DNA from: Actinomycetota bacterium
GTDB lineage: Bacteria > Actinomycetota > UBA4738 > CALAEC01
NCBI GenBank assembly: GCA_036000545.1
Contig: DASYVD010000004.1
Coordinates: forward strand, 1,260-65,259
Direction of reading: 5' to 3'
DNA: 64,000 nt
The notes below the pieces were generated by a model. The model had not been told where the DNA came from and ran no database searches. It saw only the letters and a program-made list of their open reading frames with translations. Position numbers and translations under genes: made by a program. Below, in pieces: positions 2,802 to 20,325 of the stretch (position 1 is the first letter of the stretch; each line of letters opens with the position of its first letter).

Positions 2802-3854
<1,053 letters not shown>

Positions 3855-3858
<4 letters not shown>

Positions 3859-4283
3859 CGTCGAGCCGGCTCCCTGGTCGAGAAGTCCCAGAGTTCGACT
3901 TGCATCCGTCCCTGTAGCTGCCGCATCTCGAACGCGAGTAGCAGGACCGTCGCCGGGACCACTGCCAGGACGAATGCGAGTGCCGAGAAAAACGCGACGC
4001 GGTCGAGCGCGAACATGATCGCCACGATCGCCGCCAGCCGCAGGATGAATCCTCCCAGCGCCACCGCGTAGAGGACCGTCAACGAGATCCGAGCAGCCCA
4101 GGCAAGGGACCGGCCGTGGACCACGAAGTTCAGGAGAACCACCACGAGCCCGATCGCGGCCGACAGCCCTGCCTCCCGGCTGCTTACAACAGCGCCAGCG
4201 AGGAACGCGAGGAGAACGGCCGGGGGTCCGAAGGGCAAGACCCGACGGATCATCTCGCGTTCGGGCTCAATGCTGTCCATCAT
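3855..4283 (-). CDS. atpI: ATP synthase protein I (AtpI-like small membrane protein)
   Basis: This 142-aa hydrophobic protein lies immediately upstream of atpB with a 4-nt overlap, which is the typical atpI position. Confidence 0.6.
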
Positions 4284-4494
4284 CCCCCTTGCCGTACCGC
4301 AGATACACGAGGTAGATACCTCCGGCCGCTCCCAAGACTATCCCCAGCGTGAAGAAGGGCCCGCGAAGGCCGAGCAGCCAATCAGCCAGGTACCCGAGAC
4401 CGCCCCAGACCGCGATGCCGGCCGCGAGGGTACCAGTGATGGCCCAGGCCGCACTGTAGCCCTCCCAGATATTGCCGGGTGGTCGGCTCATGGC
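4267..4494 (-). CDS. AtpZ/AtpI-family putative F0F1-ATPase-associated membrane protein
   Basis: It is a small two-TM protein (MSRPPGNIWEGYSAAWAITGTLAAGIAVWGGLGYLADWLL...). The start was trimmed to M13 of the ORF 4267..4530. It occupies the conserved position upstream of atpI. Confidence 0.5.
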   Translation of the reverse strand, partial: AMSRPPGNIWEGYSAAWAITGTLAAGIAVWGGLGYLADWLLGLRGPFFTLGIVLGAAGGIYLVYLRYGKGDDGQH

Positions 4495-4591
4495 CCGACC
4501 GAGTATATCGGCCGCCTCTGGCTCGTGCAAAAGCCCGGGGTCTTCATTTTCGCTGGTAGAAGGCCGGATTCGGTCCGCAGCACCCTCACCT

Positions 4592-4607
4592 TGTGAACGG
4601 TTTCACA
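4592..4607. promoter_or_regulatory. Perfect CRP/FNR-family binding site TGTGA-N6-TCACA in the divergent atpZ/potA intergenic region
   Basis: The sequence is ttGTGAacggttTCACAa, a perfect 5+6+5 palindrome, lying about 100 nt upstream of the potA start. Confidence 0.45.
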
Positions 4608-4709
4608 AACTCGGAGCCGTGGTCTTCACCGGCGTGTCCCCGTCGCGGCTCCCCGCCACGGTGTACAAACAGGGAACTCGTTTCGCCCGTCGCGGAGGCA
4701 CCGCCGCGG

Positions 4710-5882
4710 GTGAAGGGACGGGTAGGCTCCACTTGGGGGGAGCGCTTGGCAGAGATCGACGTCCGGCTCATCGAGGTCACGAAACGATTCGGCGACGTCG
4801 TGGCGGTCGACCGGATCTCGCTCGAGATCGACCGGGGAACCTTCTTCAGCCTGCTCGGTCCCTCGGGATGTGGGAAGACCACCACGCTCCGCCTGATCGG
4901 CGGGTTCGAGGAGCCCGACGAGGGGCGCATCGAGCTGGGGGGCCGGAACGTCGCCGGGCTGCCGCCCTATCGCCGCGACGTCAACACGGTGTTCCAGTCC
5001 TACGCTCTCTTCCCCCACCTCGACGTGTTCGAGAACGTGGCCTACGGCCTGCGGCGCAAGCGTGTTCCCCGTGACAGCATCCGCGGGCGGGTTATCGAGA
5101 TCCTGGGGCTGGTGGAGCTCCCCGGCCTGGAGGGGCGCCGGACCTCCCAGCTGTCCGGCGGCCAGCAGCAACGAGTGGCCCTGGCCCGGGCCTTGGTGAA
5201 CAAGCCGCGGGTGCTCCTCCTCGACGAGCCGCTGGGCGCTCTGGACCTGAAGCTCCGCAAGCAGATGCAGCTCTTCCTGAAGGCTCTTCAGCACGAGATC
5301 GGCATCACGTTCATCTACGTGACCCACGACCAGGACGAAGCGATGACCATGTCCGATGGCCTGGCCGTGATGCGGTCGGGACGGGTCGAGCAGGTCGGGG
5401 CGCCGGAGAACGTGTACGAGCATCCGGCGACGGAGTTCGTGGCCGGCTTTCTCGGCGCGTCGAACCTGCTGCCGGGCTCGATCGAAGAGCGGAGAGGGGA
5501 GTTCGGGGTGGTGGCACTCACGTCCGGAGAGAAGCTCCGGGTCCCGGCGCGGGCCCTGAACGGGACCGGGCCTCGGGTGAAGGTGGGCGTGCGCCCGGAG
5601 AAGATCCGGATCCTCCCGGGCTCCGAACCACCCGAGGAAGCGGACAATGCGGTGCGCGGACGGCTTCGGATCTCCACCTACGTCGGGGTCAGCAATCAGT
5701 ACGAGGTGGAGACCCCGGCCGGGGGGACCATCACCGTGTACGAACAGAACCTGGGTGGGCCGGGGAAGTGGGCGCCATCGCCGGGAGAGGACGTGCTCCT
5801 TGCCTGGCACCCGGAGCATACATTCGTCGTCGAGCCCGAGGACGGCGGGGAGACGGATCCGAAAGGAGGCAACGGTGGGTGA
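4710..5882 (+). CDS. potA: Spermidine/putrescine ABC transporter ATP-binding protein
   Basis: It carries Walker A GPSGCGKTT, the LSGGQQQRVALARAL signature, Walker B LLLDEPLGALD and a C-terminal TOBE-like domain. The GTG start has a GGAGG RBS 12 nt upstream. Confidence 0.85.
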   Translation: MKGRVGSTWGERLAEIDVRLIEVTKRFGDVVAVDRISLEIDRGTFFSLLGPSGCGKTTTLRLIGGFEEPDEGRIELGGRNVAGLPPYRRDVNTVFQSYALFPHLDVFENVAYGLRRKRVPRDSIRGRVIEILGLVELPGLEGRRTSQLSGGQQQRVALARALVNKPRVLLLDEPLGALDLKLRKQMQLFLKALQHEIGITFIYVTHDQDEAMTMSDGLAVMRSGRVEQVGAPENVYEHPATEFVAGFLGASNLLPGSIEERRGEFGVVALTSGEKLRVPARALNGTGPRVKVGVRPEKIRILPGSEPPEEADNAVRGRLRISTYVGVSNQYEVETPAGGTITVYEQNLGGPGKWAPSPGEDVLLAWHPEHTFVVEPEDGGETDPKGGNGG

Positions 5883-5886
5883 CGAG

Positions 5887-7104
5887 ATGATCAGGAGGTT
5901 CGGAGGAACCCCGAGACGCCTGTCGCGGCGCGAGGCCCTCGTTCAGATGGGTCGGGGCAGCACCTATCTGGGAGTGATGTCTCTCCTGGCCGCGTGCGGT
6001 GTCCGCGGGACGCAGACCCAGCCCTCCCCCACCGCGGCCAGCCCTTCGCCGCTCCCCGAAAAGGCCGGCGAGCTCCGTGTGGCGAACTGGCCGCTGTACA
6101 TCGATCTGGAGGGCGGCAAGAGCCCGACGCTGAACGCCTTCAAGAAGCAGACGGACATCGACATCACCTACAAGGAAGACATCAACGACAACGACGAGTT
6201 CTTCGGGACCGACCTCCGGCAGCAACTTGCCGCCGGGCAGCCGACGGGTTGGGACATCGTCACCATGACGGACTGGATGATCGCCAAGCTCGCCCGCCTC
6301 GGATGGATTCAGCCGCTCCACCACGAGGTGCTTCCCAACGCCACGGCCAACCTGGACCCGAAGTTCCAGGATGCGTATTTCGATCCCGGCCGGCAGTACA
6401 GCTTCCCCTGGGCCGCAGGCATCACGGGGATCGGCTACAACAAGAAGCTCACCGGTCGCCCCATCACGAGCCTCAACGACCTCTTCGACCCGGCGTTCAA
6501 GGGCAAGGTGGGGATGTTCTCGGAGATGAGGGACACGATCAACTTCGCCCTCTTCCAGCTGGGCATCAAGCCGCCGGAGAACGCCACGATGGACGACATC
6601 GAACGGGCGGTCGACCTGCTGATCAAGCAGCGGGACGACGGGATCGTCCGCGCGTACTACGGGAACGACTACACCGACCAGCTCGCCGAGGGGAATCTCG
6701 CCCTCACGATGGCGTGGTCCGGCGACGTCAACTTCCTGAAGCTCGACGTCCCGGAACTGGAGTTCGTGGTTCCCGAAGAGGGCGGCAACCGTTGGACGGA
6801 CAACATGGCCATCCCGATCCAGGCGGAGCATCCCACGGATGCCCACGAGTGGATCGACTTCGTGTACCAGCCCGACATCGCCACCCGCATCACGGAATGG
6901 GTGTGGTACGAGTCACCGGTGGCGGGGGTGCAGGAGCTGATCCAGGAGCACGCCAAGGAGGATCGCTCGCTCAGGCCCGTAGCGAACAGCGAGCTCGTGT
7001 GGCCCTCTGAGGACGTCCTGGCGAACACCTACGGGTACAAGATCCTCTCCGAGGAAGAGGAACAGGCCTGGCACGACCTGTTCGACCCGCTGATCCAGGG
7101 GTAG
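5887..7104 (+). CDS. potD: Spermidine/putrescine ABC transporter substrate-binding lipoprotein (Tat-type signal plus lipobox)
   Basis: It belongs to the PotD/PotF family. The N-terminus MIRRFGGTPRRLSRREALVQMG...LLAACG has a twin-arginine-like motif and a lipobox. The ATG lies 5 nt after the potA stop. Confidence 0.85.
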   Translation: MIRRFGGTPRRLSRREALVQMGRGSTYLGVMSLLAACGVRGTQTQPSPTAASPSPLPEKAGELRVANWPLYIDLEGGKSPTLNAFKKQTDIDITYKEDINDNDEFFGTDLRQQLAAGQPTGWDIVTMTDWMIAKLARLGWIQPLHHEVLPNATANLDPKFQDAYFDPGRQYSFPWAAGITGIGYNKKLTGRPITSLNDLFDPAFKGKVGMFSEMRDTINFALFQLGIKPPENATMDDIERAVDLLIKQRDDGIVRAYYGNDYTDQLAEGNLALTMAWSGDVNFLKLDVPELEFVVPEEGGNRWTDNMAIPIQAEHPTDAHEWIDFVYQPDIATRITEWVWYESPVAGVQELIQEHAKEDRSLRPVANSELVWPSEDVLANTYGYKILSEEEEQAWHDLFDPLIQG

Positions 7105-7106
7105 AC

Positions 7107-7982
7107 GTGGCCGTCGCCGCCGAGCGCCCGGGCTTCGGGCTCCGCCGGGGACTGGTCGCCTACCTGCTCCTGGTTCCCGGGATCGCCTGGCTGCTGGTCT
7201 TCTACGCGTGGCCCACGATCCAGATGTTCTTCATCTCGCTGCAGGAGGGATCGCTCGAGCGTGGCTACCAGCTCACCTGGCACTGGGCGACATACGGAGA
7301 CGTGTTCTCCAAATACTCAACCCAGCTCATCAGATCGGTGGGGTACGGCCTGATCGTGACGGTGGCCTGCCTGCTGATCAGCTACCCGCTGGCGTACTTC
7401 ATCGCCATCTACGGGGGCCGATGGAAGAACGCTCTGCTCTTCATGGTGATCCTGCCGTTCTTCGTCTCGTTCCTGATCCGGACCCTGTCGTGGAAGTTCA
7501 TCCTGGCCGACAACGGGCTGTTCCTCGGAACGATCAAGCAGATCGGACTGCTGCCGGACGACTTCCGCTTGCTCGCAACCCCGATCGCGGTGATCTCCGG
7601 CCTCATCTACAACTTCCTCCCCTTCATGGCCTTGCCCCTGTACGCATCGTTGGAGAAGCTCGACCGAAGCCTCCTCGAGGCGGCCCAGGACCTCTACTCC
7701 AGCCGGGCGGTGGCGTTCCTCAAGGTGACCCTGCCGCTGTCCCTGCCCGGCGTGTTCGCCGGTTCGCTCCTCACCTTCATCCCCGCCATGGGGGACTTCA
7801 TCAACCCGGCCCTGCTCGGCGGCCCCAACACCACGCTGATCGCGAACGTGATCCAGCGCCGCATGCTGATCAGCAACGATTACCCAGAGGGCGCAGCGAT
7901 CTCATTCATCCTCATGGCCGCGATCCTGGTGGGCGTGGCCGTATACGCGAAGCTCCTAGGAACCGAGGAGCTTACCGGGTGA
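7107..7982 (+). CDS. potB: Spermidine/putrescine ABC transporter permease
   Basis: It is a 6-TM ABC permease with the EAA-like loop LEAAQDLYSSRAVAFLKVTLPL. Confidence 0.85.
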   Translation: MAVAAERPGFGLRRGLVAYLLLVPGIAWLLVFYAWPTIQMFFISLQEGSLERGYQLTWHWATYGDVFSKYSTQLIRSVGYGLIVTVACLLISYPLAYFIAIYGGRWKNALLFMVILPFFVSFLIRTLSWKFILADNGLFLGTIKQIGLLPDDFRLLATPIAVISGLIYNFLPFMALPLYASLEKLDRSLLEAAQDLYSSRAVAFLKVTLPLSLPGVFAGSLLTFIPAMGDFINPALLGGPNTTLIANVIQRRMLISNDYPEGAAISFILMAAILVGVAVYAKLLGTEELTG

Positions 7983-8854
7983 GCACGCGGGCTGGCGAGG
8001 TCGTGGGAGAGCGCCAGCTCTTGCGGGAGCCTCCCCCCGGACGGCGGCGCTCGAAGGGCCGCGGTTGGATCCTTCCCCTGTACACGGGACTGGTGATCGC
8101 CTACCTGTTCCTTCCCATCGCGGTGATGATCCTGTTCGGGTTCAACGACTTGAAGGGCCGGTTCAACTTCACCTGGCAGGGATTCACGCTCCGCCACTAT
8201 CGCGACGTGCTTCAGTTCCAAGAGCTCACCCTGGCCCTGCGGAATTCGTTGCTCATCGCAGCCGTCACCACGCTAGTGGCCACCGTCTTGGGGACGCTCG
8301 TGGCCCTGGCGCTCACTCGCTACCGTTTTCGAGGCCGGGGCGGCACGAACATGTTCATCTTCCTGCCCATGGCCACCCCGGAGGTGGTCCTGGGGGCCTC
8401 CCTCCTGGCTTTCTTCCTCACCCTGGGCCTCCCCCGCGGCCTGCTCACGATCCTGATCGCCCACATCATGTTCACGATCTCGTTCGTGGTGGTGACGGTG
8501 AAGGCCCGGACGCACGGGTTCAACCGGGAGTGGGAGGAGGCCGCCAAAGACCTCGGGGCCACCCCCTGGGTCACCTTCTGGACGGTCACCTTCCCGCTGA
8601 TCTTCCCGGGGATCATGGCCGCCGCCGCCCTGGCCGCGGCCCTCTCCATCGACGATTACGTGGTGACCGCCTTCAACGCCGGCCAGACCTCAACGTTCCC
8701 CCTGTGGGTGTTCGGTGCCTCCCGCTTCGGGGTGCCCCCGCAGGTCAACGTGATGGGCACCATCATTTTCGTCGCGGGCGTGGCCCTGGCCCTGGCAACC
8801 GTGGCCATCCAGCGGCGTCAAGGAGGAGCCGCGCAGCCGCCCGCGGTGTCCTGA
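7979..8854 (+). CDS. potC: Spermidine/putrescine ABC transporter permease
   Basis: The GTG start overlaps the potB stop (GTGA). The permease body reads ...EEAAKDLGATPWVTFWTVTFPLIFPG. The longer ORF 7208..8854 has a wrong-frame-like, P/R-rich N-terminus. Confidence 0.85.
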   Translation: MSTRAGEVVGERQLLREPPPGRRRSKGRGWILPLYTGLVIAYLFLPIAVMILFGFNDLKGRFNFTWQGFTLRHYRDVLQFQELTLALRNSLLIAAVTTLVATVLGTLVALALTRYRFRGRGGTNMFIFLPMATPEVVLGASLLAFFLTLGLPRGLLTILIAHIMFTISFVVVTVKARTHGFNREWEEAAKDLGATPWVTFWTVTFPLIFPGIMAAAALAAALSIDDYVVTAFNAGQTSTFPLWVFGASRFGVPPQVNVMGTIIFVAGVALALATVAIQRRQGGAAQPPAVS

Positions 8855-8881
8855 GCAACCTCGGGACCTGTCCGAACCGCG

Positions 8882-8903
8882 CGGGACTCGCGTCCCTTTT
8901 GTA
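8882..8903 (+). terminator. Rho-independent terminator after the pot operon
   Basis: The sequence GCGGGACTCGCGTCCC forms a GC hairpin followed by TTTTGT, about 30 nt after the potC stop. Confidence 0.55.
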
Positions 8904-8990
8904 CAGCTTGGCCCCGGCGCGATCGCCGAGGGTTGTTACCCTGGGACGGCCCCACGTGGGGACGGGCCGATCCAGGAGGGATAGGGGAGG

Positions 8991-10346
8991 ATGGACGATC
9001 GTCTTATCGTCCGCGCCGGAGAGGTCCAGCGACGGGAGATGGCCCGTTTCGGGGAGCGCACCACGGCTTCGAAGCGGCTGTACGACCGGGCCATAGCCCT
9101 CCTGCCTCTCGGGGTGGCGTCCTCGTTCCAAGCGAACGACCCATACCCCATCTACCTCGACCGGGGCCGGGGCAGCCGCGTTTGGGACGTCGACGGAAAC
9201 GAATACGTCGACTTCCACAACGGGTTCGGCACGATGGCCGTGGGCCACGCTCACCCAAAGGTCGCTCAAGCCATCGAGCGCGCCGCACGGAACGGCACCC
9301 ACTTCGCCGCCACCACCGAGGTAACGGTGGCATTGGCTGAGGAACTCTGCCGGCGATTCCGCCTCGACCGGGTCCGATTCAACAACTCGGGGACCGAGTC
9401 CACTATGGACGCCATCCGCACGGCCAGGGCTGCCACGGGCCGGGACGTGATCGTCAAGATCGAGGGCTCGTATCACGGACACCACGATGCCGTGATGTTC
9501 TCCGTGGTCCCGGGTGCGGGCGTGATGGGAGGGCGTGATCAGCCGGCCTCGGCTCCGATGTCGCTCGGGATCCCTGCAGACACCGCGGAGCGGACACTGG
9601 TGGTGCCGTTCAATGACGCGCCCGCGTTCGAGCGCATCCTCGCTCAGCGGGGCGAAGACATCGCCTGCCTGATCATGGAGCCGGTGATGATGAACATCGG
9701 CATCGTGCTCCCCCACCCTGGATACCTCGAGACCGTCCGCGACCTGTGCACGAAGCACGGAGTGGTTCTGATCTTCGACGAGGTGAAGTCGGGGGCCACC
9801 ATCGCGGAGGGCGGGGCCACGGAGCGCTTCGGCGTTCGGCCCGACCTAGCGTGCTTCGCCAAGGCGATCGGGGGCGGCGCTCCCCTGGGGGCGTTCGGCG
9901 GGACGGCCGCCGTGATGGAGATCATCGGGCGGGGCGCCGCCCAGCAAGGGACGTTCAACGGGAACCCCCTGGCCGCCTCAGCCGGGCTCGCCGCGTTGAC
10001 GGAGGTCCTGACAAAGGACGCCTACGAGCACCTGGCGCGGCTGGGAACGCAGCTCGCCGAGGGATGCCAGAAAGCCATCGCCGACCACGGGATCCCCGCC
10101 CACACCGTGGACCTCGGGTGCAAGGGATGCGTCTCGTACCGGTCGGAGCCGCTGACGAACTATCGGGATTTCCTGGAGACTCACACCGAGCTGTTCGAGG
10201 CCTCGTGGCCGTGGATGGTGAACCGGGAAGTGTTCATGACCCCGGGCGACGAGGAGCAATGGACGATCTCGGTCCAGCACTCCGAAGACGACATCGCTCG
10301 ATACGTCGACGCGTTCGGGGAGTTCTGTACCGAGCTGGCGGGCTGA
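8991..10346 (+). CDS. Class-III (glutamate-1-semialdehyde aminomutase-like) PLP-dependent aminotransferase; possibly polyamine/omega-amine catabolism
   Basis: It is 451 aa with a GSA-AT-like N-terminus VWDVDGNEYVDFHNGFGTMAVGHAHP, and FDEVKSG, the position where class-III enzymes carry the PLP lysine. It is adjacent to the pot importer. Confidence 0.8.
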   Translation: MDDRLIVRAGEVQRREMARFGERTTASKRLYDRAIALLPLGVASSFQANDPYPIYLDRGRGSRVWDVDGNEYVDFHNGFGTMAVGHAHPKVAQAIERAARNGTHFAATTEVTVALAEELCRRFRLDRVRFNNSGTESTMDAIRTARAATGRDVIVKIEGSYHGHHDAVMFSVVPGAGVMGGRDQPASAPMSLGIPADTAERTLVVPFNDAPAFERILAQRGEDIACLIMEPVMMNIGIVLPHPGYLETVRDLCTKHGVVLIFDEVKSGATIAEGGATERFGVRPDLACFAKAIGGGAPLGAFGGTAAVMEIIGRGAAQQGTFNGNPLAASAGLAALTEVLTKDAYEHLARLGTQLAEGCQKAIADHGIPAHTVDLGCKGCVSYRSEPLTNYRDFLETHTELFEASWPWMVNREVFMTPGDEEQWTISVQHSEDDIARYVDAFGEFCTELAG

Positions 10347-12802: not shown

Positions 12803-14059
12803 CTACGGATAGGCAGGAAACCGGGCGCAGAGGTCGCTAACCCGCTCCCGGGCCCACCGTTTCACCTCCTCGTCCTCGGGAGCGCTGATGAGCCGGCCGA
12901 TGGTCTCGGCGACCTGGTGCATCTCGAGCTCGTCCATGCCCAGGGTCGCCGGGCCGGGGGTACCCACGCGGATCCCCGATGCCGTCGCCGGGGGCAGTGG
13001 GTCGAACGGGATGGCGTTCTTGTTCAGCGTGATGCCCACCTCGTCGCACAATGCCTCTGCGTCGGCCCCGGTGATGCCGGCGGGCTGGAGGTCGACCAGG
13101 GCGAGGTGGGAGTCGGTGCCCCCCGACACGAGGCGGAGGCCCGCCTCCTGGAGGCCATCGGCCAGCGCCCGCGCCGTGCGCACCACCCGATGCGCGTAGT
13201 CCTTGAACTCGGGGGCCATGGCCTCCTTGAGAGCCACAGCCTTGGCGGCGATGCAGTGCTCCAGGGGCCCTCCTTGAAGCATGGGGAACGCCGCCTTGTT
13301 GACGGCCTTGGCGTGCTCCTCCTTGCAGAGGATCATCGCGCCGCGCGGGCCTCGAAGCGTCTTGTGCGTGGTGAACGTGACCACGTCCGCGAATGGCACC
13401 GGGTTCGGATACGCACCGCCGGCGACGAGCCCGATGAAGTGGGCCGCGTCTACGAGCAGGGTCGCACCCACCTCGTCGGCCACCTCCCGGAACGCGGCGA
13501 AGTCGATGACTCGAGGGTAGGCCGTCGCCCCGCAGATGATCATCTTGGGCCGGTGCTCCTTCGCCAGGTCCCGCACCTGGTCCATGTCGATGAGCTCGGA
13601 ATCCTTGTCCACCTCGTAGCCGATGACGGAGAACCACTTCCCCGAGAAGTTGACCGGCGAGCCGTGCGTAAGGTGGCCACCGTGGGGGAGGCTCATCCCC
13701 AGGATGGTGTCCCCGGTCTCGAGGAATGCGAAGTACGCGGCCATGTTGGCCTGGGCGCCGGCGTGTGGCTGGGCGTTGGCGTGCTCCGCACCGAACAACT
13801 CCTTGGCCCGGTCGATAGCCAGCTGCTCGGCGACGTCCACCCACCTGCAGCCGCCGTAGTACCGCTTGCCCGGCAAGCCTTCGGCGTACTTGTTGTTCAT
13901 CGTCGAGGCCAGGGCGGCCAGCACAGCCGGACTGGTGTAGTTCTCCGAGGCGATCAGTCGGATCGTGGTCCGCTCCCGCTCGAGCTCACCGGCCATGGCC
14001 TCCGCGATCTCGGGGTCCGTTTCTCTTAGCGCGTCCCAGTCGGCAACCCAGTCCTTCAC
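12803..14059 (-). CDS. glyA: Serine hydroxymethyltransferase
   Basis: It is 418 aa with [37 protein letters not shown] and the PLP-Lys region [11 protein letters not shown]. Confidence 0.9.
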
Positions 14060-14508
14060 CTGATGCCCTCCTCAGCCTCGATGTCGGCGATCTGACGCAG
14101 CCGCGAGACATGACGGCCGCCCTCGAACTGTGTCTCCAGCCAGACCTTCACGATCTCCCTCGCAAGGGCCGGCGCCACGATCCGGGCGCCGATGGCGAGG
14201 ACATTCGCGTCGTTGTGGGCCCGGGACATCCGGGCCGTGTACAGGTCGTTGCAGAGTGCAGCGCGGACGCCCCGCACCTTGTTGGCGGCGATCTGCTCTC
14301 CCTGGCCCGAGCCCCCCAGCAGGATTCCCAGGTCGGCCTTCCCACCTCGGACGGCGCGCCCCACCTCCGCGCAGATCGGCGGGTAGTCGGTCGGCTCTTC
14401 CGAGTCGGTCCCCAGGTCCATGGCCTCATGGCCCAGCTCTTTCAGGTGCTGCTTCACGTCCTCCTTGAGCGGGAACCCCGCATGGTCCGAGCCGATCGCG
14501 ATCCGCAC
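14056..14508 (-). CDS. rpiB: Ribose-5-phosphate isomerase B
   Basis: It is 150 aa ([28 protein letters not shown]...[17 protein letters not shown]), typical of the RpiB/LacAB family. Confidence 0.85.
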
Positions 14509-14511
14509 CGG

Positions 14512-15108
14512 TCAGCCCTCTTCCGACGCGGCCGTCCTGGCGGCTCCACGCCGGTCCCCGAAGAGTCCCACGATCACTACGTCGACGGCCGACTCGATGT
14601 CCCAGGCCACGTCGCGGTAGGCGAACAACGCGCTTCCGATCGGGTCTCGGACGTCTGGGTCTCGAACCACCGATCCGGCGACGCCTCCCCGCAGCCGGTG
14701 GGCGTCTGCGATCCGGACCACGGCAGCGTCCCGGTCGGCGTGGACCCGGATGGGCGGCAGGGATTCGAGGAGCGCTGCCAGCTCCTTCAGGGTGAACGTC
14801 TTCGGGGCCGCTTCCGGGACCAGGTCGAGCACCTCGTCGCGGTGCTCCCGAGCTAGTCCCAGGACCAGGTCCGACTCCCTGACCAGGTGCTCGCGCAGCG
14901 GGCGGGCGCGGTGCTCTTCGATCTCCAGTCCCATCTCCCGCGCAGCGATGACGGCGTTGGACGTGGCCGGATTGCCGCGCTGGGCCCATGACCCGGCGGA
15001 TACGACCGAGACGGGCAACGCGAGCTCGCGGGACCGGCTCTGGAGGAGGGCTTCGGCGACGGGAGAACGGCAGATGTTGCCGGTGCACACGAAGAGGACC
15101 GAGAGCAC
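14512..15108 (-). CDS. Low-molecular-weight protein-tyrosine phosphatase
   Basis: The N-terminal P-loop VLFVCTGNICRSP is the CX5R LMW-PTP signature. The protein has a C-terminal extension of about 40 aa. Confidence 0.8.
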   Translation of the reverse strand: MLSVLFVCTGNICRSPVAEALLQSRSRELALPVSVVSAGSWAQRGNPATSNAVIAAREMGLEIEEHRARPLREHLVRESDLVLGLAREHRDEVLDLVPEAAPKTFTLKELAALLESLPPIRVHADRDAAVVRIADAHRLRGGVAGSVVRDPDVRDPIGSALFAYRDVAWDIESAVDVVIVGLFGDRRGAARTAASEEG

Positions 15109-15235
15109 TGGGGCAGTCTAGCATCGGGCCTCTTCGCCAGGTCCGCCGCCTCACCTCCGCTCGTCGCCTGAAGTCCGGATGAAAAGGAACCGGCCCCCGC
15201 GAGGGGACCGGTTCCTTCTCCTACCGGTGCCAACG

Positions 15236-17143
15236 CTACTGTTGGCTGCTCTCACACCTCACGAAGGTGTCGGCACCAGGGCCGCCGAAGCAGCGGTCGT
15301 TGGTACCCCGCCCGCCGTCCAGGTGGTCGTTGCCCCGGCCACCGAACAGCCTGTCGTTGCCGCGGCCGCCCAACAGCGTGTCGGAACCACGGCCTCCGCG
15401 GAGCACGTCCCGGCCACGGCCGCCCCTGAGGGTGTCGGCGTTCCTGCCGCCACGCAGGTCGTCGGCGCCACGGGCTCCCCGGAGGTCGTCCGCCCCCGCG
15501 CCGCCGCGCCCGAGGTCCGCACCGGCACCCGCCAGCAGGAGGTCGTTGCCGCCCAGCCCGCTGAGGGTGTCGTTCCCACCGAACGCGCAGATGATGTCAG
15601 CCCCGGCGGTGCCCGTCAGAACGTCGGCACCGGGAGTCCCGATCACGTCGTTCCGCGGGTCCCCCTCGTAGCCGGGGCACTCCGGCGTCGGCCCCACCAC
15701 AAAGCCCGTGTCAACGTTGAGGCCGAAGAAGCACCCGTTGGTGCACGAGTCCGCCACCGCGTCGATGTTCCCGTCGCTGTTCAGGTCCACGAGCCCATTG
15801 TTGGCGGGATCGGGAGGGTTCCCGAAGCCGCATGGGTTCGTCTCCGCGGCGTTGTTCCCGAGGATGTCGGCCCCGTCCGTGGGGTCGCCGAGGCCGGCGT
15901 CGGCCGTCTGGCCGATGAGCCCGAAGTGACAGTCGTTGAAGTTGATGAACTCGTTGCCGTCGGAGTCCACCCGGCCGCCGATCGCGGACCACGCGAAGTC
16001 GGAGTCGCTGACATCGTTATTGTCCGGATCCGCCGCGTTGAACACGGTGGGCAGCGGTCCATTCGCCACCTGGAACTCCCCGTCGATGACCTCGATCAGC
16101 ACACCGTCAGCGGTACCGTCGTAGCCGCGGAGCTCACAGTCGTCGGCGCCGGTGATCGCACCGTTGCCGGCGGTGCCGTCGTTCTCCGTCGTCCAGTTGT
16201 TGCAGTCCAGGAAGCCGTCGATGATGTGGGTGTCGCCGTAGAACGCGTTCGAATCGTCGCGGCCGGTGACCGCGCCGTCACCGTTGAGGTCGGCCACTCC
16301 GCCGACGATGGTTGGAGAGAAGCCTCCGGTGAACGCATTTGCCGGAGGAGTGGGGAACGGACCGGGCTGCGCCTCCTGCACCACGCCAGTGTCGACGTTA
16401 TGGCCGAAGAAGCAGCCGTTGGTGCAGGAATCCGCGGCGGCGGTGATCTCCCCGTCGCTGTTCAGGTCGACGAGCCCGTTGTTGGCCGCATCGGGCGGGT
16501 TCCCGAACCCACACGGGTTCGTGTTCGCCTGGGTGTTCCCGAGGATGTCCGCCCCGTCCGTCATGTCGCCGGCCCCGGCGTCGACGGTCTCGCCGATGAG
16601 CCCGAAGTGACAGTCGTCGGCAGTGATCTGCTCGTTGCCGTTGGAGTCCACCCGGCCGTTGATCGTGGACCAGGCGAAGTCGGAGTCACCCACGTCGGGG
16701 TTGTCCGGATCCGACGCGTTGAACACGGTTGGCAGCGGTCCATCGCCCACTTGGAACTCGCCGTCCACGACGCCGATGGTTACCCCGTCGGCCGTGCCGT
16801 CGTACCCAATGAGCGTACAGTCATCGGCCGCTGTGATCGCTCCGTCGCCGGCGCTGCCTTCGTTCGCCGTCGCCCCCCAGGCGTTACAGTCGAGCCCGCC
16901 GTCGATGATGTGGGTGTCGCCGTAGAACGCGTTCGAGTCGTCGCGGCCGGTGGCCTCGTTGTCACCGTTGAGGTCGGCCAGTCCGTCGAAGACCGTCGGC
17001 GAGATGCCTCCGGTAAACGGCGCAGCCGCAGCCGGGCCCGCCAGCGTGAGCTGAGTGACGAACGCCATCACGAAAAGCGCGCCCAGGGCCGCTACACGGC
17101 GGCGAGCCCTTCCCGGGCGCGTGGTCGAGCGAATCAAATTCAT
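15236..17143 (-). CDS. Secreted Asp/Cys-rich calcium-binding-like repeat protein: Tat-like signal, 2 x about 229-aa tandem domains, C-terminal RTX/hemolysin-type GG repeats
   Basis: The N-terminus RPGRARRRVAALGALFVMAFVTQLTLAGPAAAAP is Tat-like. Two near-identical modules each contain DLNGDxxxTGRDD and DLNSDGxIxAxAD (dockerin/EF-hand-like) loops plus 7 Cys. The C-terminus carries at least 10 GGxGxD-like repeats (GGRGNDRLFGGRGNDHLDGGRG). A strong RBS GGAAGGAG lies 7 nt upstream of the ATG. Confidence 0.7.
   Translation of the reverse strand: MNLIRSTTRPGRARRRVAALGALFVMAFVTQLTLAGPAAAAPFTGGISPTVFDGLADLNGDNEATGRDDSNAFYGDTHIIDGGLDCNAWGATANEGSAGDGAITAADDCTLIGYDGTADGVTIGVVDGEFQVGDGPLPTVFNASDPDNPDVGDSDFAWSTINGRVDSNGNEQITADDCHFGLIGETVDAGAGDMTDGADILGNTQANTNPCGFGNPPDAANNGLVDLNSDGEITAAADSCTNGCFFGHNVDTGVVQEAQPGPFPTPPANAFTGGFSPTIVGGVADLNGDGAVTGRDDSNAFYGDTHIIDGFLDCNNWTTENDGTAGNGAITGADDCELRGYDGTADGVLIEVIDGEFQVANGPLPTVFNAADPDNNDVSDSDFAWSAIGGRVDSDGNEFINFNDCHFGLIGQTADAGLGDPTDGADILGNNAAETNPCGFGNPPDPANNGLVDLNSDGNIDAVADSCTNGCFFGLNVDTGFVVGPTPECPGYEGDPRNDVIGTPGADVLTGTAGADIICAFGGNDTLSGLGGNDLLLAGAGADLGRGGAGADDLRGARGADDLRGGRNADTLRGGRGRDVLRGGRGSDTLLGGRGNDRLFGGRGNDHLDGGRGTNDRCFGGPGADTFVRCESSQQ
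15659..17023 (-). repeat. Intragenic tandem duplication (2 x 687 nt) within the secreted repeat protein gene
   Basis: The protein modules aa 41-269 and 270-495 are about 75% identical. The antisense frame also repeats with a 687-nt offset (ORF 15936..16124 matches ORF 16623..16925). Confidence 0.75.
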
Positions 17144-17544
17144 ACCATTGCTCCTTCCGAGATCGGCACCGCGAATGGTGCCAAATCGTTACAAATGAGG
17201 CAGCGAGCCTCGGGGTCGCACCCCGCCCGGTCGCTACCCTGGAACCGCGGATGCGGTCCCTTGAGGTTCTCACAGGCCCCCAACCGGCCTCCTTTCCCAG
17301 GTTCTACAAAGCGCAGGAACGCTACCATCCCGACAACTCGGGAAACAAGACCCAAAACCCGAGGTCAGGGAGCCCCTTGCTGGCCGTCACCGGACGTGCC
17401 AGGTCGCTCCCTCATTCCTCACCCATTGATAACGACAAGGGAAGCCGAAGGTTGCTGCCAAACTGCCTTCTTTGGCCGAACATACCGAGCCGTTAGGGCA
17501 CGGCTTCAGAGAGCAGGTGCGTGGGGGGTTAGCAGCGACAAAGG

Positions 17545-18273
17545 TCAGGCGCCGACCCGGGCGTCGGGTCCCGGACCGCTCGGAGGAACCTTAGGGTTCC
17601 CAGAAAGGGCACCAAGGACCACGTCTTCACGCACACGACCCTGTTCGTCCCACGTCCGGCGGAAGCTGTCCCGGGCCCGGTGGATGAGGGCCTTCACCTG
17701 GGCTGGAGACTTTCCCAGAGCGATTCCGATCTCGCGATGGGAGAGCCCGTGGAACTCACGGAGGACCAGGGCCGCCCGCTGTTCCTGGCACAGCCGGGAG
17801 AGGAGGGCGCGGACCCGCCCCTCCTCGGCCAGGCGTTCCACCGCGTCGAAGGGGTCGTCGTCCCCCTTCGTCCCGTTGCCGGGGTCCAACGGGATAGAGA
17901 CTCCGTTTTCCACGCGGCGGGCACGTGATCGGAGAACGTCCAGGCATACGTTCGTGGCGATGCGCGCAACCCAGGCCTTCAGGTAGGTCCCATCGAACCT
18001 GGGAAGCCCCTGGAGGACCCGCAACATCGTCTCCTGGGCCGCCTCCTCGGCGTCGTCGAGGTTGCAGAGCAAGCGGCGACACACTCTGTCGGCGAGCAGC
18101 CGGTATCGTCGGTAGATCTCCGGGTACGCGGACGGATCTCCCTCATGGAACGCGGAAACGAGGTCGCTGTCGGCTGCAGACGTGGGGGCATTAGGCAGGC
18201 GATCGTCCACGACATTTCGTCGCGGCCCCCTCCTCACGTCCACCCACCGCCTCCATGGGCCCCCGGCGGACAC
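17545..18273 (-). CDS. ECF-type RNA polymerase sigma-70 factor
   Basis: The sigma-2 region reads EIYRRYRLLADRVCRRLLCNLDDAEEAAQETMLRVLQGL. The sigma-4 region reads LSHREIGIALGKSPAQVKALIHRARDSFRR. No adjacent anti-sigma gene is present. Confidence 0.75.
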   Translation of the reverse strand: MSAGGPWRRWVDVRRGPRRNVVDDRLPNAPTSAADSDLVSAFHEGDPSAYPEIYRRYRLLADRVCRRLLCNLDDAEEAAQETMLRVLQGLPRFDGTYLKAWVARIATNVCLDVLRSRARRVENGVSIPLDPGNGTKGDDDPFDAVERLAEEGRVRALLSRLCQEQRAALVLREFHGLSHREIGIALGKSPAQVKALIHRARDSFRRTWDEQGRVREDVVLGALSGNPKVPPSGPGPDARVGA

Positions 18274-18351
18274 GGCGACATCGGGAGATCGCTGCGAGGT
18301 TACTTGGTCTCGGGAATCCGAATCAAGACCCGGCGGGGACCGTCCGACGCC

Positions 18352-19683
18352 TTACGCGGAAGCCCGAACCGAAACCACCGGAGGAAGGTGCTCGACCAGA
18401 CGGCCCCAGGTCACTCCGCCGTCCGCCGACCCGAACACCTCGCCGGACTCGGCCCCGAAGAAGAGGCCCAGCGGATCTCGCCCGTCGTGGCAGAAGGCCT
18501 GCCGGAGCACGGTCAGGTACGCCTCGTCCTGAGGAAGCCCATCGAAGCGCGCTTGCCATGAACCGCCGCGGTCGCTGGTCTCGAACACGCGAACCTTCCC
18601 GTCGGGGGTCACGCGGTCGAAGTCCCCACGCAGGGGAATGACGAATGCCCGGTCGGAGTCCCTCGGGTCCACGACCAGGGGGAAGCCGAAGTCTGAGGGC
18701 AGCCCCTCCCCGATGTCCTGCCAGGTCTCACCGGCGTCGTCGGAGCGGTACACGCCGCCGTGGAACTGGAGGTACAGGGTCTCGGGCTGCACGGGAGAGC
18801 GGTGGACGTTGTGCACACACAGGTCCGTCGCACCCTCCCGGGCCTCCTCCGGCAGGTACGGTGCAACGAGCCCCTTGATCCCCCGCCGCCACGACTTGGC
18901 ACCGTCATCGGTCAGCCACACTCCTGCCGCGGAGATCCCCACCGCCATCCGGTCGGGATCGCCCGGCCACGTGGCGATGGAGTGGAGACAGAGGCCTCCG
19001 GCCCCGGGCTCCCACGTCGGCCGGCTCGGCTCCTCCCATAGGCCACGGTTGAGCGCCCAGGTCCGGCCACCGTCCTCGCTTCGGAACAAGGACGCGGGGG
19101 CGACGCCCGCCCAGAGGACGTCGTTCTCCTCACCCGGTTGGATCACCCAGATCCGCTCCACCGCGGCGCCGGCCTCCTCGGGGAAGGCCGGCCCGGACGA
19201 CTGCTCCCAGTCCTTCACTGTGGGATCGTCGGCGACGTACAGCCGCGGCCCGTACTGCCCGTGAGTGACCGATGCGAGATAGGTTCCCGAACGCCGATCC
19301 CGGATTGCGTACTCGACGGTCTGTCCGGAGAACTGCCGGGCAGCCACCTCCATCCGCCCGCCTCGCGGGCCGCGCAGGACGTACAGCCCCTTGCGGGTGC
19401 CGACCAAGAGCTCCCCGGCGTCGCTTCCCCCGGAGATCGCCCCCAGGACGTCCACCCGGTCAACCGTTGCCACGGACACGTCGAGCCCGGCGCGCTCTCC
19501 GTTCACGAACAGCTTGACGTGCTCGCGGACCGAGCCGCGTTCGTCGAGGATCCATCCCGTGAGGCGGGGGTGTGTCTCCTGGAGGCGACGAACGACTTCA
19601 CCGAGGGTCTGCCCCTCGACCTGCAGAGCGCCGTTCCCTCCGGCGAGCTCCCGAAGCGGAGATCGCAGCCGAACCGTAGTCAC
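18352..19683 (-). CDS. Fusion protein: N-terminal MoaD/ThiS-like ubiquitin-fold domain ending in Gly-Gly, plus a BNR/sialidase-like (Ycf48-like) beta-propeller
   Basis: The first 86 aa, MTTVRLRSPLRELAGGNGALQVEGQTLGEVVRRLQETHPRL...VDVLGAISGG, have MoaD/ThiS topology with a terminal GG. The remainder carries at least 5 BNR motifs (SEDGGRTW, TDDGAKSW, SDDAGETW, SDRGGSW, SADGGVTW). Confidence 0.7.
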   Translation of the reverse strand: MTTVRLRSPLRELAGGNGALQVEGQTLGEVVRRLQETHPRLTGWILDERGSVREHVKLFVNGERAGLDVSVATVDRVDVLGAISGGSDAGELLVGTRKGLYVLRGPRGGRMEVAARQFSGQTVEYAIRDRRSGTYLASVTHGQYGPRLYVADDPTVKDWEQSSGPAFPEEAGAAVERIWVIQPGEENDVLWAGVAPASLFRSEDGGRTWALNRGLWEEPSRPTWEPGAGGLCLHSIATWPGDPDRMAVGISAAGVWLTDDGAKSWRRGIKGLVAPYLPEEAREGATDLCVHNVHRSPVQPETLYLQFHGGVYRSDDAGETWQDIGEGLPSDFGFPLVVDPRDSDRAFVIPLRGDFDRVTPDGKVRVFETSDRGGSWQARFDGLPQDEAYLTVLRQAFCHDGRDPLGLFFGAESGEVFGSADGGVTWGRLVEHLPPVVSVRASA

Positions 19684-19692
19684 GTTCGAAGC

Positions 19693-20325
19693 CTAACCCA
19701 AGAGCGTCCTCAGCTCCTCCGCGGGGATGGCGCCTTCCCGGAGGATCTGCGGCTCCGGTCTCGAAAGGTCCACCACGCTCGACGCAACGGCGCCAACAGG
19801 TCCGGCGCACAGGTATACCGCCACCGCCTGACCGAACAGGGACCGGACGCCCGGGCAGTCGGACGGCGTCGGCCCTCCGGATAGATTCGCGCTCGTCACG
19901 GCGAGCGGGCCGGTGATTCTCAACAGATCGAGGGCCAGGGGATGATCGGGCACACGAACACCGACAGTGCTCCTCTCGTCACCGAGGTCCCATCGCCTCG
20001 AAAGCTCGCTCCTCGGAAGCACGAGGGTCAGTCCGCCCGGCCAGAACCTGTCCCCGAGGCCGCGGGCCCGGTCGTCGAGGACGCCCACTCGAGCGGCGTC
20101 CTCCACGCTGGCGGCGAGCACCGGGAGGGTCAGGTCTCGGGAACGGCGCTTCGCGGAGAATAGGGCCGCTGTGGCCTTCTTGCGGTCTGGTCGGGCGCCG
20201 ATCCCGTAGACGGTATCGGTCGGCACGACCACGAGCTCGCCCGCCTTCAGTGCCTGAGCCGCCGCGTCCATCGCCGTCTCGAGGTCCTGTTGGTCCGCTC
20301 CGGTCAGCTCGAACAGCTCGCTCAC
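19693..20325 (-). CDS. tsaC: L-threonylcarbamoyladenylate synthase (TsaC/YrdC family)
   Basis: The YrdC core reads GELVVVPTDTVYGIGARPD ... LAVTSANLSGGPTPSD. The start was trimmed to a GTG abutting the prmC stop. The longer ORF 19693..20466 overlaps prmC by 144 nt and has a G/R-rich N-terminus. Confidence 0.7.
   Translation of the reverse strand: MSELFELTGADQQDLETAMDAAAQALKAGELVVVPTDTVYGIGARPDRKKATAALFSAKRRSRDLTLPVLAASVEDAARVGVLDDRARGLGDRFWPGGLTLVLPRSELSRRWDLGDERSTVGVRVPDHPLALDLLRITGPLAVTSANLSGGPTPSDCPGVRSLFGQAVAVYLCAGPVGAVASSVVDLSRPEPQILREGAIPAEELRTLLG

Follow-up and report, generated by a model that had tools for sequence, protein, structure and literature searches.

A signal-peptide-bearing RTX protein with an undescribed Asp/Cys-rich module, and the candidate promoters and structured leader that precede its gene, beside an extracytoplasmic function sigma gene of an uncultured actinobacterium

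GGxGxD nonapeptide repeats are shared by the RTX beta-roll proteins, among them the C-terminal domains of serralysin and alkaline protease, the RTX blocks of CyaA, and the R-modules of AlgE, and in Gram-negative bacteria such repeats are usually read as a marker of type-1 secretion. Extracytoplasmic function (ECF) sigma factors usually have a co-encoded anti-sigma factor at position +1, and their promoters carry AAC at -35 and CGT at -10. Long stabilising leaders, finally, are common before the genes of highly expressed secreted proteins. Here, we describe a locus in which these three themes meet, on the minus strand of a 64,000-nt stretch of an Actinomycetota assembly (GCA_036000545.1, contig DASYVD010000004.1, positions 1,260 to 65,259; hereafter, the window). 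An open reading frame (ORF) for a 635-aa RTX protein (15236–17143, −) lies there 401 nt downstream of, and co-directional with, an ECF sigma gene (17545–18273, −), at about the distance given in a preliminary description of this DNA. The locus is coherent and real. Its components belong to known kinds; three of them, namely, the passenger domain, the leader, and the sigma clade together with its promoter motif, are variants not described before. Judging from the sequence, we consider it fairly probable that the gene encodes a calcium-binding protein exported through its signal peptide and expressed from dual promoters.

The 635-aa protein, deposited as HEV8681204.1 (an exact match in the protein collection, named "calcium-binding protein" by NCBI) and having a 95% identical orthologue in locus L120, shares its repeats with the RTX beta-roll proteins but departs from them in several ways. 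It has a probably cleavable N-terminal signal peptide and no C-terminal type-1 secretion signal, its RTX block appears to be capped by a Cys pair, its host is an actinobacterium, and the passenger module at its N-terminal side is unrelated to theirs and undescribed. Two such modules follow the signal peptide, namely, module 1 (aa 42–270; 16334–17020, −) and module 2 (aa 271–497; 15653–16333, −), the second of which ends in an ECPGY linker. Each is Asp/Cys-rich and has three clear EF-hand/dockerin-like loops of the form D-x-N/D-x-D/N-G-x-I-x-x-x-D plus one related segment, GDGAITAADDC, which agrees with the calcium-loop-like motifs noted in the preliminary description. The signal peptide, the loop-bearing modules, and the undescribed domain family likewise bear out its reading of a secreted, calcium-loop-rich repeat protein. 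Other details of that description need revision. It was right that there are two tandem modules of about 75% identity (we find 76%, or 170 of 223 residues), but their sizes are 227–229 aa rather than 229 aa each, and the duplication is not the perfect 687-nt one reported, given that the DNA identity is 80% (544 of 678) with indels and the best DNA self-offset is 681. Six cysteines were counted in each module instead of seven; the seventh sits in the ECPGY linker past module 2.

The modules are offset by 229 aa over roughly their first 45 residues and by 227 aa from there on, a shift due to indels; with its imperfect identity, this is an old, diverged duplication. These values come from a self-offset scan, as Tandem Repeats Finder is blind to periods >500 nt. 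The possibility that the duplication is an assembly artefact, raised in the preliminary description, can be set aside: the two-module architecture is found in three independent assemblies, including the 960-kb JGI contig of L120, and relatives with two and with three modules were found in a search of cluster representatives, which together argue that it is real. In each module, the six conserved cysteines could form three disulfides that, together with three to four EF-hand/dockerin-type calcium loops, would probably hold the fold.

A search with one module returned 465 close homologues, nearly all of them proteins of 360–400 aa in which RTX repeats follow a signal peptide and a single module, and all from soil metagenomes or metagenome-assembled genomes (MAGs) of Gaiellaceae. 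The family is small: when 1.84 billion cluster representatives were searched exhaustively with HMMER, only 107 clusters at 50% identity were found. Its 35 genome (MAG) loci belong to uncultured Actinomycetota, the one exception being a short contig that bears the label Candidatus Limnocylindria. Longer relatives join the module to Calx-beta, Big_1, DUF346, and IPT/TIG-like repeats, and no enzyme domain was found fused to it among the family members examined. A literature search on Gaiella together with RTX gave no relevant result.

The module is modelled by AlphaFold as an all-beta domain with high confidence (model m7bb7291da31b; predicted local distance difference test score, pLDDT, 94.4; predicted template modelling score, pTM, 0.89), and on this model each copy is an all-beta domain from an undescribed family. 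The confident model used an alignment of 64 sequences that included distant representatives; 30 close homologues alone gave a pLDDT of 58, and the Foldseek matches of that low-confidence model were meaningless and were discarded. Foldseek with the confident model found nothing in the PDB at E<5. No Pfam or NCBIfam model covers the module, for which these collections gave only sub-threshold Dockerin_1 and EF-hand loop matches, and a family profile search against PDB sequences returned only dockerin calcium loops, at E 0.07 or worse (0.07–0.3). On the 635-aa protein, for instance, Dockerin_1 (PF00404) reaches 20.6 bits against a cut-off of 22.9, over 23 residues only, and such sub-threshold matches occur in 16 of 23 modules. 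The similarity is confined to the 12-residue loop D-x-N-x-D-G-x-V-x-x-x-D, which the module has in common with type I dockerins and is the only part that aligns. Type I dockerins are duplicated loop-helix domains of ~65 aa, whereas the module has ~225 aa, six cysteines, and an all-beta model, and the cohesin context of dockerins was not seen around the module proteins. The 635-aa protein would most likely act as a calcium-dependent extracellular binding or scaffold protein.

The RTX block (aa 498–630; 15254–15652, −) has 13–14 units and matches PF00353 at E=3.5e-29, in line with the "at least ten" repeats of the preliminary description, and its matches among PDB sequences are the beta-rolls of CyaA, a lipase, and serralysin. 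Since these Pfam and PDB matches are significant, a calcium-dependent beta-roll is to be expected. The last turn is closed family-wide by a conserved Cys pair, C618/C630 (C...GGPGxDT...CE; 15254–15300, −), which the RTX proteins of L122 and L123 have as well, although they lack the module. This pair may be a disulfide cap that takes the place of the usual C-terminal capping structure, in which case the repeats would form a calcium-loaded beta-roll capped by it.

At the other end, the signal peptide (aa 1–41; 17021–17143, −), recognised from sequence, hydropathy, and conservation, has an RRR n-region, a hydrophobic core, and five alanines (aa 37–41) before Pro42, and the same arrangement of n-region, h-region, and Ala-rich end is conserved across homologues. 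The preliminary description called it a signal resembling those of the twin-arginine translocation (Tat) pathway. The RRR is indeed present, as RRRVAAL, to be compared with the Tat motif S/T-R-R-x-F-L-K, but the twin arginine is not conserved: 103 of 131 homologous signal peptides have it and 28 (21%) do not, which argues against an obligatory Tat route. The protein would most likely be exported via Sec and probably cleaved after the alanine run, folding only outside the cell. The most economical reading, in our opinion, is that Sec carries it across the membrane and that calcium would then drive its folding, with disulfides formed, on the outside.

The sigma factor encoded upstream consists of the sigma2 and sigma4 domains only (Sigma70_r2, 1.8e-15; Sigma70_r4_2, 6.8e-13; TIGR02937 above its cut-off) and, if translated from its likely start, a GTG at 18243, has 232 aa, as does the 96% identical P0224. 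It ends in a short (about 30 aa), Pro/Gly-rich tail. As the preliminary description stated, there is no cognate anti-sigma ORF: no ORF >24 aa was found on the minus strand between the sigma gene and the leader region, and in L120 and in the contig of P0226, there is likewise no anti-sigma ORF between the sigma and RTX genes. Such an absence is unexceptional, given that Casas-Pastor et al. (2021; PMC7826278) report a putative anti-sigma factor in 114 of 157 ECF groups; according to the same authors, groups with short C-terminal tails often have no other regulator. The nearest relatives outside the lineage (47–55% identity) carry a hydrophobic, membrane-type C-terminal extension of ~150 aa that is missing here. 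Among described sigma factors, the closest are those ECF sigmas that lack an anti-sigma factor, such as the ECF41/SigJ type with its SnoaL domain and ECF238/CorE2 with its Cys-rich tail, which have in common with the window's protein the sigma2-sigma4 structure, the missing adjacent anti-sigma gene, and a target promoter with AAC and CGT, here a predicted one. In contrast to them, the window's sigma has neither a SnoaL nor a Cys-rich extension (Pfam finds no SnoaL_2 in it, and this domain appears only in distant sigma matches), and its gene has no autoregulatory motif upstream. What precedes the gene is a predicted housekeeping-type promoter, TTGATT-N18-TAACCT (18297–18326, −), which recurs in L120 and L121, so that the three loci read TTGATT-N18-TAAC(C/G)T.

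In the 401-nt spacer between the two genes, there is a predicted ECF-type promoter, GCAACC-N14-TCGTTA (17430–17455, −), with the AAC and CGT expected of its kind. The preliminary description had given it as GCAAC-N16-CGTT; we find it at 17455–17431, and it is the sole block of the spacer that is conserved in L121. The sigma of this locus is 67–68% identical to that of the window, its spacer is 246 nt long, and the single aligning block is CAGCAACCTTC...TCGTTATCAATGGGTG (or GCAACCTTC...TCGTTATCAATGGGTG). The block is conserved in both L120 and L121, and in the latter, its flanks cannot be aligned. The gene order sua5, MoaD/BNR, sigma, RTX, and low-molecular-weight phosphatase is kept in relatives whose sigma factors are 96% and 68% identical to that of the window. 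The sigma relatives at 47–55% identity are found in another genomic context, with a HemolysinCabind gene that lacks the Asp/Cys module downstream (ORF fragments occupy this position in L125), and CAACC-N14-16-CGTT lies between the sigma and that downstream gene in all five of these loci (L122–L126). Thus, the motif stands between the sigma and RTX-protein genes in all eight sigma-clade loci examined, and in L123, L125, and L126, it is also found immediately upstream of the sigma gene, a classical sign of ECF autoregulation. It occurs 42 times in the 1.73 Mb of sequence fetched, 19 of these at most 560 nt in front of a family or RTX gene, where 1.6 would be expected, and copies of it precede the family genes of at least four sequence groups that are unrelated to one another. 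Given this conservation, the enrichment, and the AAC/CGT features, we consider the promoter real and most probably read by the window's sigma clade, this sigma being the only one whose adjacency holds across both genomic contexts.

Several of the loci that carry the motif deserve a brief description. In L122–L126, a block at ~3600–10200 contains a secreted BNR_2 protein, the sigma with the hydrophobic extension, the RTX protein, a second ECF sigma of 162 aa, and a gene of ~195 aa that may encode an anti-sigma factor, and the block adjoins a divergent sugar ABC transporter. In L096 (776–4457), an ECF-type motif is followed by a family gene of 431 aa (module, IPT/TIG, and a C-terminal beta domain), an ECF sigma, and a protein of 403 aa that spans the membrane once and bears a PD40/TolB-like propeller, an order that resembles a canonical, autoregulated sigma/anti-sigma operon with a module protein at its head. 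L117 (1345–2435) and L086 (1986–3065) encode another secreted protein, which combines IPT/TIG-like repeats with a CarboxypepD_reg-like domain at the C-terminus and is preceded by a strong motif copy of its own, GGGCAACCTTCTT..CGTCGTT; these copies hint at a small regulon of surface proteins.

Closer to the 635-aa ORF, there is a predicted SigA-like promoter (17319–17348, −), consisting of a -35 TTGTTT (17348–17343), a spacing of N18, and an extended -10, TGgTAGCGT, with its hexamer at 17324–17319. The evidence for it is a cross-locus pattern: between -90 and -300, TTGnnn-N17-18-TAnnnT is present upstream of 27 of 31 and, in a larger set, of 61 of 90 unique homologues, the background rate being 0.022 per 400 nt. 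Most homologues, in fact, have no sigma gene nearby and have a housekeeping-type promoter and a long leader instead. We also considered a terminator-like hairpin with a T-run (17366–17349, −) located between the ECF motif and the proximal -35 and rejected it, as the number of such sites is within chance and it overlaps a conserved element upstream of the promoter; a functional terminator here would keep the two promoters insulated from one another.

The proximal promoter is followed by a predicted structured leader of ~170 nt (17144–17312, −), here called class A, with four hairpins in series, which was delineated by nhmmer, a fold z-score (-2.54), and a covariance model. By nhmmer, it is found upstream of 34 of 90 unique homologue starts, and the matches of the covariance model lie only directly upstream of family genes. 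In a model-guided alignment, which is fitted to the structure, 86.6% of cells pair, compared with 32–47% when the partners are slid; in this same structure-fitted alignment, 16 of 38 leader pairs change on both sides, and 0 of 500 shuffles reach the observed score. The hairpin UUGGCACC-N6-GGUGCCGA (17163–17184, −) is helix 7 of the leader and stands directly 5′ of the ribosome-binding site (RBS), GGAAGGAG (17151–17158, −); in homologues, (A/G)AAGGAG is conserved before the start codon. In this helix, 91.9% of cells are paired and three pairs changed on both sides; the hairpin GGCACC-N6-GGTGCC that the preliminary description placed just before a strong RBS was found, at 17182–17165, together with compensatory changes. 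From its sequence, the leader may be a stabilising or regulatory 5′ untranslated region.

Other family members have leaders of other classes behind the same type of promoter. Class B leaders (L008, L010, L014–L016, L021, L030, and L036) start with CGG..GGTTCCAATCCA..GGGAGGCAGC, and class C leaders (L017, L018, L020, and L028) with GGTTTCGCGAAAGCGAA. An upstream ORF within the leader (17140–17355), which overlaps the start codon as ATGA, was rejected, its reading frames being unconserved among class A leaders; for example, the leader of L025 has stops within 10–21 codons in all three frames. The leaders of highly expressed genes for surface-layer (S-layer) and other surface proteins offer the nearest parallel, with a strong housekeeping-type promoter and a hairpin-rich leader of 110–240 nt before an abundant secreted protein. 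The 635-aa protein differs in being Cys-rich and small.

Regarding expression, we thus propose two predicted inputs. The proximal promoter, TTGTTT-N18-TAGCGT, with its hairpin-rich leader of ~170 nt, would be the part that most family members have in common, as far as the type of promoter is concerned. The distal promoter would be read by the sigma encoded 401 nt upstream and would add inducible expression. This sigma would act without an anti-sigma partner and without the membrane-spanning extension of its relatives, its own gene being placed behind a housekeeping-type promoter. The dedicated sigma control suggested in the preliminary description therefore stands insofar as an ECF-type promoter is conserved, but it is not exclusive, given the housekeeping-type promoter, the leader, and the family loci that have no close sigma relative.

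Several observations weigh against this proposal. Both promoters are sequence predictions. A protein-side search found no close relative of the window's sigma within 3–6 kb of any of the 119 family loci (L001–L119); it gave two weak sigma matches (E 0.001–0.003), and the one in L096 is the different ECF sigma with its anti-sigma factor. In the window, as in L120 and L121, the sigma gene lacks an upstream ECF motif and with it the autoregulation that ECF sigmas typically show. The second sigma/anti-sigma pair downstream of the target gene in L122–L126 and in L096 may be what actually reads the motif or may take part in a cascade, and the ECF motif of the window may be a relic bypassed by the proximal promoter. 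A stricter scan for an Escherichia coli-type sigma-70 consensus flagged nothing in 14900–19900, and the housekeeping-type call consequently rests on the actinobacterial -10 consensus, TANNNT, and on conservation across loci. Finally, RNAalifold on a plain MAFFT alignment recovered only the RBS-proximal hairpin, and it was because this gave almost no consensus structure that the model-guided alignment was used.

Some of these points can be assembled into other explanations. If CAACC-N14-16-CGTT were read by another ECF sigma, paired with an anti-sigma factor as in L122–L126 and L096, the adjacency of the window's sigma would be synteny without regulation or one step of a cascade. The ~162-aa second sigma and the ~195-aa gene after the RTX gene in L122–L126, the order of genes in L096, and the lack of an ECF motif upstream of the window's sigma would all fit, and the L096 sigma is closer to the second sigma (E 2e-11) than the second sigma is to that of the window (E 9e-5). 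However, no second sigma is found near the gene in the window's lineage, the first sigma gene of L123, L125, and L126 has the motif directly in front of it, and only the first sigma keeps its adjacency in both contexts, so we regard this explanation as unlikely, if one to be kept in mind. The related idea that the ECF-type motif is an evolutionary relic, with the gene run from the proximal housekeeping-type promoter and tuned by the leader, would make the sigma irrelevant. It would account for how widespread the proximal promoter is, for the family loci that have no close relative of the sigma, and for the fact that L121 has the ECF motif alone and the window has both promoters, as if a promoter/leader cassette had been inserted later. 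Nevertheless, the conservation of the motif block across lineages in which the sigma has diverged to 67–68% identity and the surrounding spacer cannot be aligned, as well as its recurrence in unrelated sequence groups, makes a relic distinctly unlikely.

The leader and the repeats invite two further explanations. The main regulatory layer could be a riboswitch, with the leader sensing a ligand (for example, a metal ion such as calcium) and gating translation by occluding the RBS. The conservation of the leader in 34 of 90 loci, the compensatory changes in its helices, the hairpin that abuts the RBS, and a Shine–Dalgarno-like GGAGG box in the 5′ part of the leader are what one would look for in such an element. 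Yet, its hairpins simply follow one another without forming a multi-stem junction, Rfam has no match for it (14000–20000 contains only two chance microRNA matches elsewhere, at E 0.075 and 0.11), RNAalifold support is weak without the model-guided alignment, other family members have different leaders, and long leaders that merely stabilise are, as mentioned, common for highly expressed secreted proteins. A riboswitch therefore seems improbable to us. As for the protein, its strong nonapeptide repeats led the preliminary description to imply a classical RTX exoprotein exported by a type-1 secretion system, of which such repeats were called the hallmark. This is not sustained: the N-terminal signal peptide is conserved in the family, and the repeats run nearly to the C-terminus, with only about seven residues (RCESSQQ) after the last unit, which leaves no room for the uncleaved C-terminal secretion signal of tens of residues that is absent here. 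In addition, no ABC/MFP/TolC-type genes were found in the gene table around the locus or among ten large ORFs of the window, and the host is an Actinomycetota MAG. Type-1 export can accordingly be considered very improbable, and export through the signal peptide, with expression from dual promoters, remains the explanation that we favour.

The neighbourhood of the locus, in a stretch with 63–72% G+C, reads on the minus strand prmC, sua5, a MoaD/ThiS-BNR fusion, the ECF sigma gene, the spacer, the 635-aa ORF, a low-molecular-weight phosphatase gene, rpiB, and glyA. The 443-aa fusion (18352–19683, −), identified through Pfam, NCBIfam, and synteny, is made up of a MoaD/ThiS-like domain (a SAMP1-like ubiquitin fold) and a BNR/Asp-box beta-propeller; it lacks a signal peptide and lies directly upstream of the sigma gene in the lineage (L120 and the contig of P0226). 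It is uncertain whether it belongs to the sigma-RTX unit. A conserved BNR-sigma-RTX triad was considered and rejected, as the BNR protein of L122 is secreted and has no detectable homology to the fusion in the window. On the opposite strand, a 935-aa ORF (15179–17986, +) that runs in antisense across the RTX gene and into the sigma gene is an artefact of high G+C, with a low-complexity translation rich in Arg, Ala, Val, Gly, and Pro.

What this locus means for the biology of these organisms depends on how far the proposal is taken. In its furthest form, which we consider unlikely, the module would be a new calcium-binding fold restricted to Gaiellales-like Actinomycetota and the signature regulon member of an undescribed, anti-sigma-less ECF clade that controls Sec-exported RTX proteins through CAACC-N15-CGTT, with the leader as a new cis-regulatory RNA and second, possibly metal-responsive, layer of control. 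Without going so far, the locus offers an anti-sigma-less ECF sigma cleanly paired with a specific promoter motif, a pairing open to test, together with a candidate structured leader and a domain whose structure is predicted with confidence and for which Pfam, NCBIfam, and the PDB gave no match. The module, the sigma-promoter pairing, and the leader could all be tested heterologously, without culturing the organism. Even if all else should fail, the locus warns against deducing a secretion route from RTX repeats, which here form the C-terminal part of signal-peptide-bearing proteins in poorly known, uncultured, and abundant soil actinobacteria.

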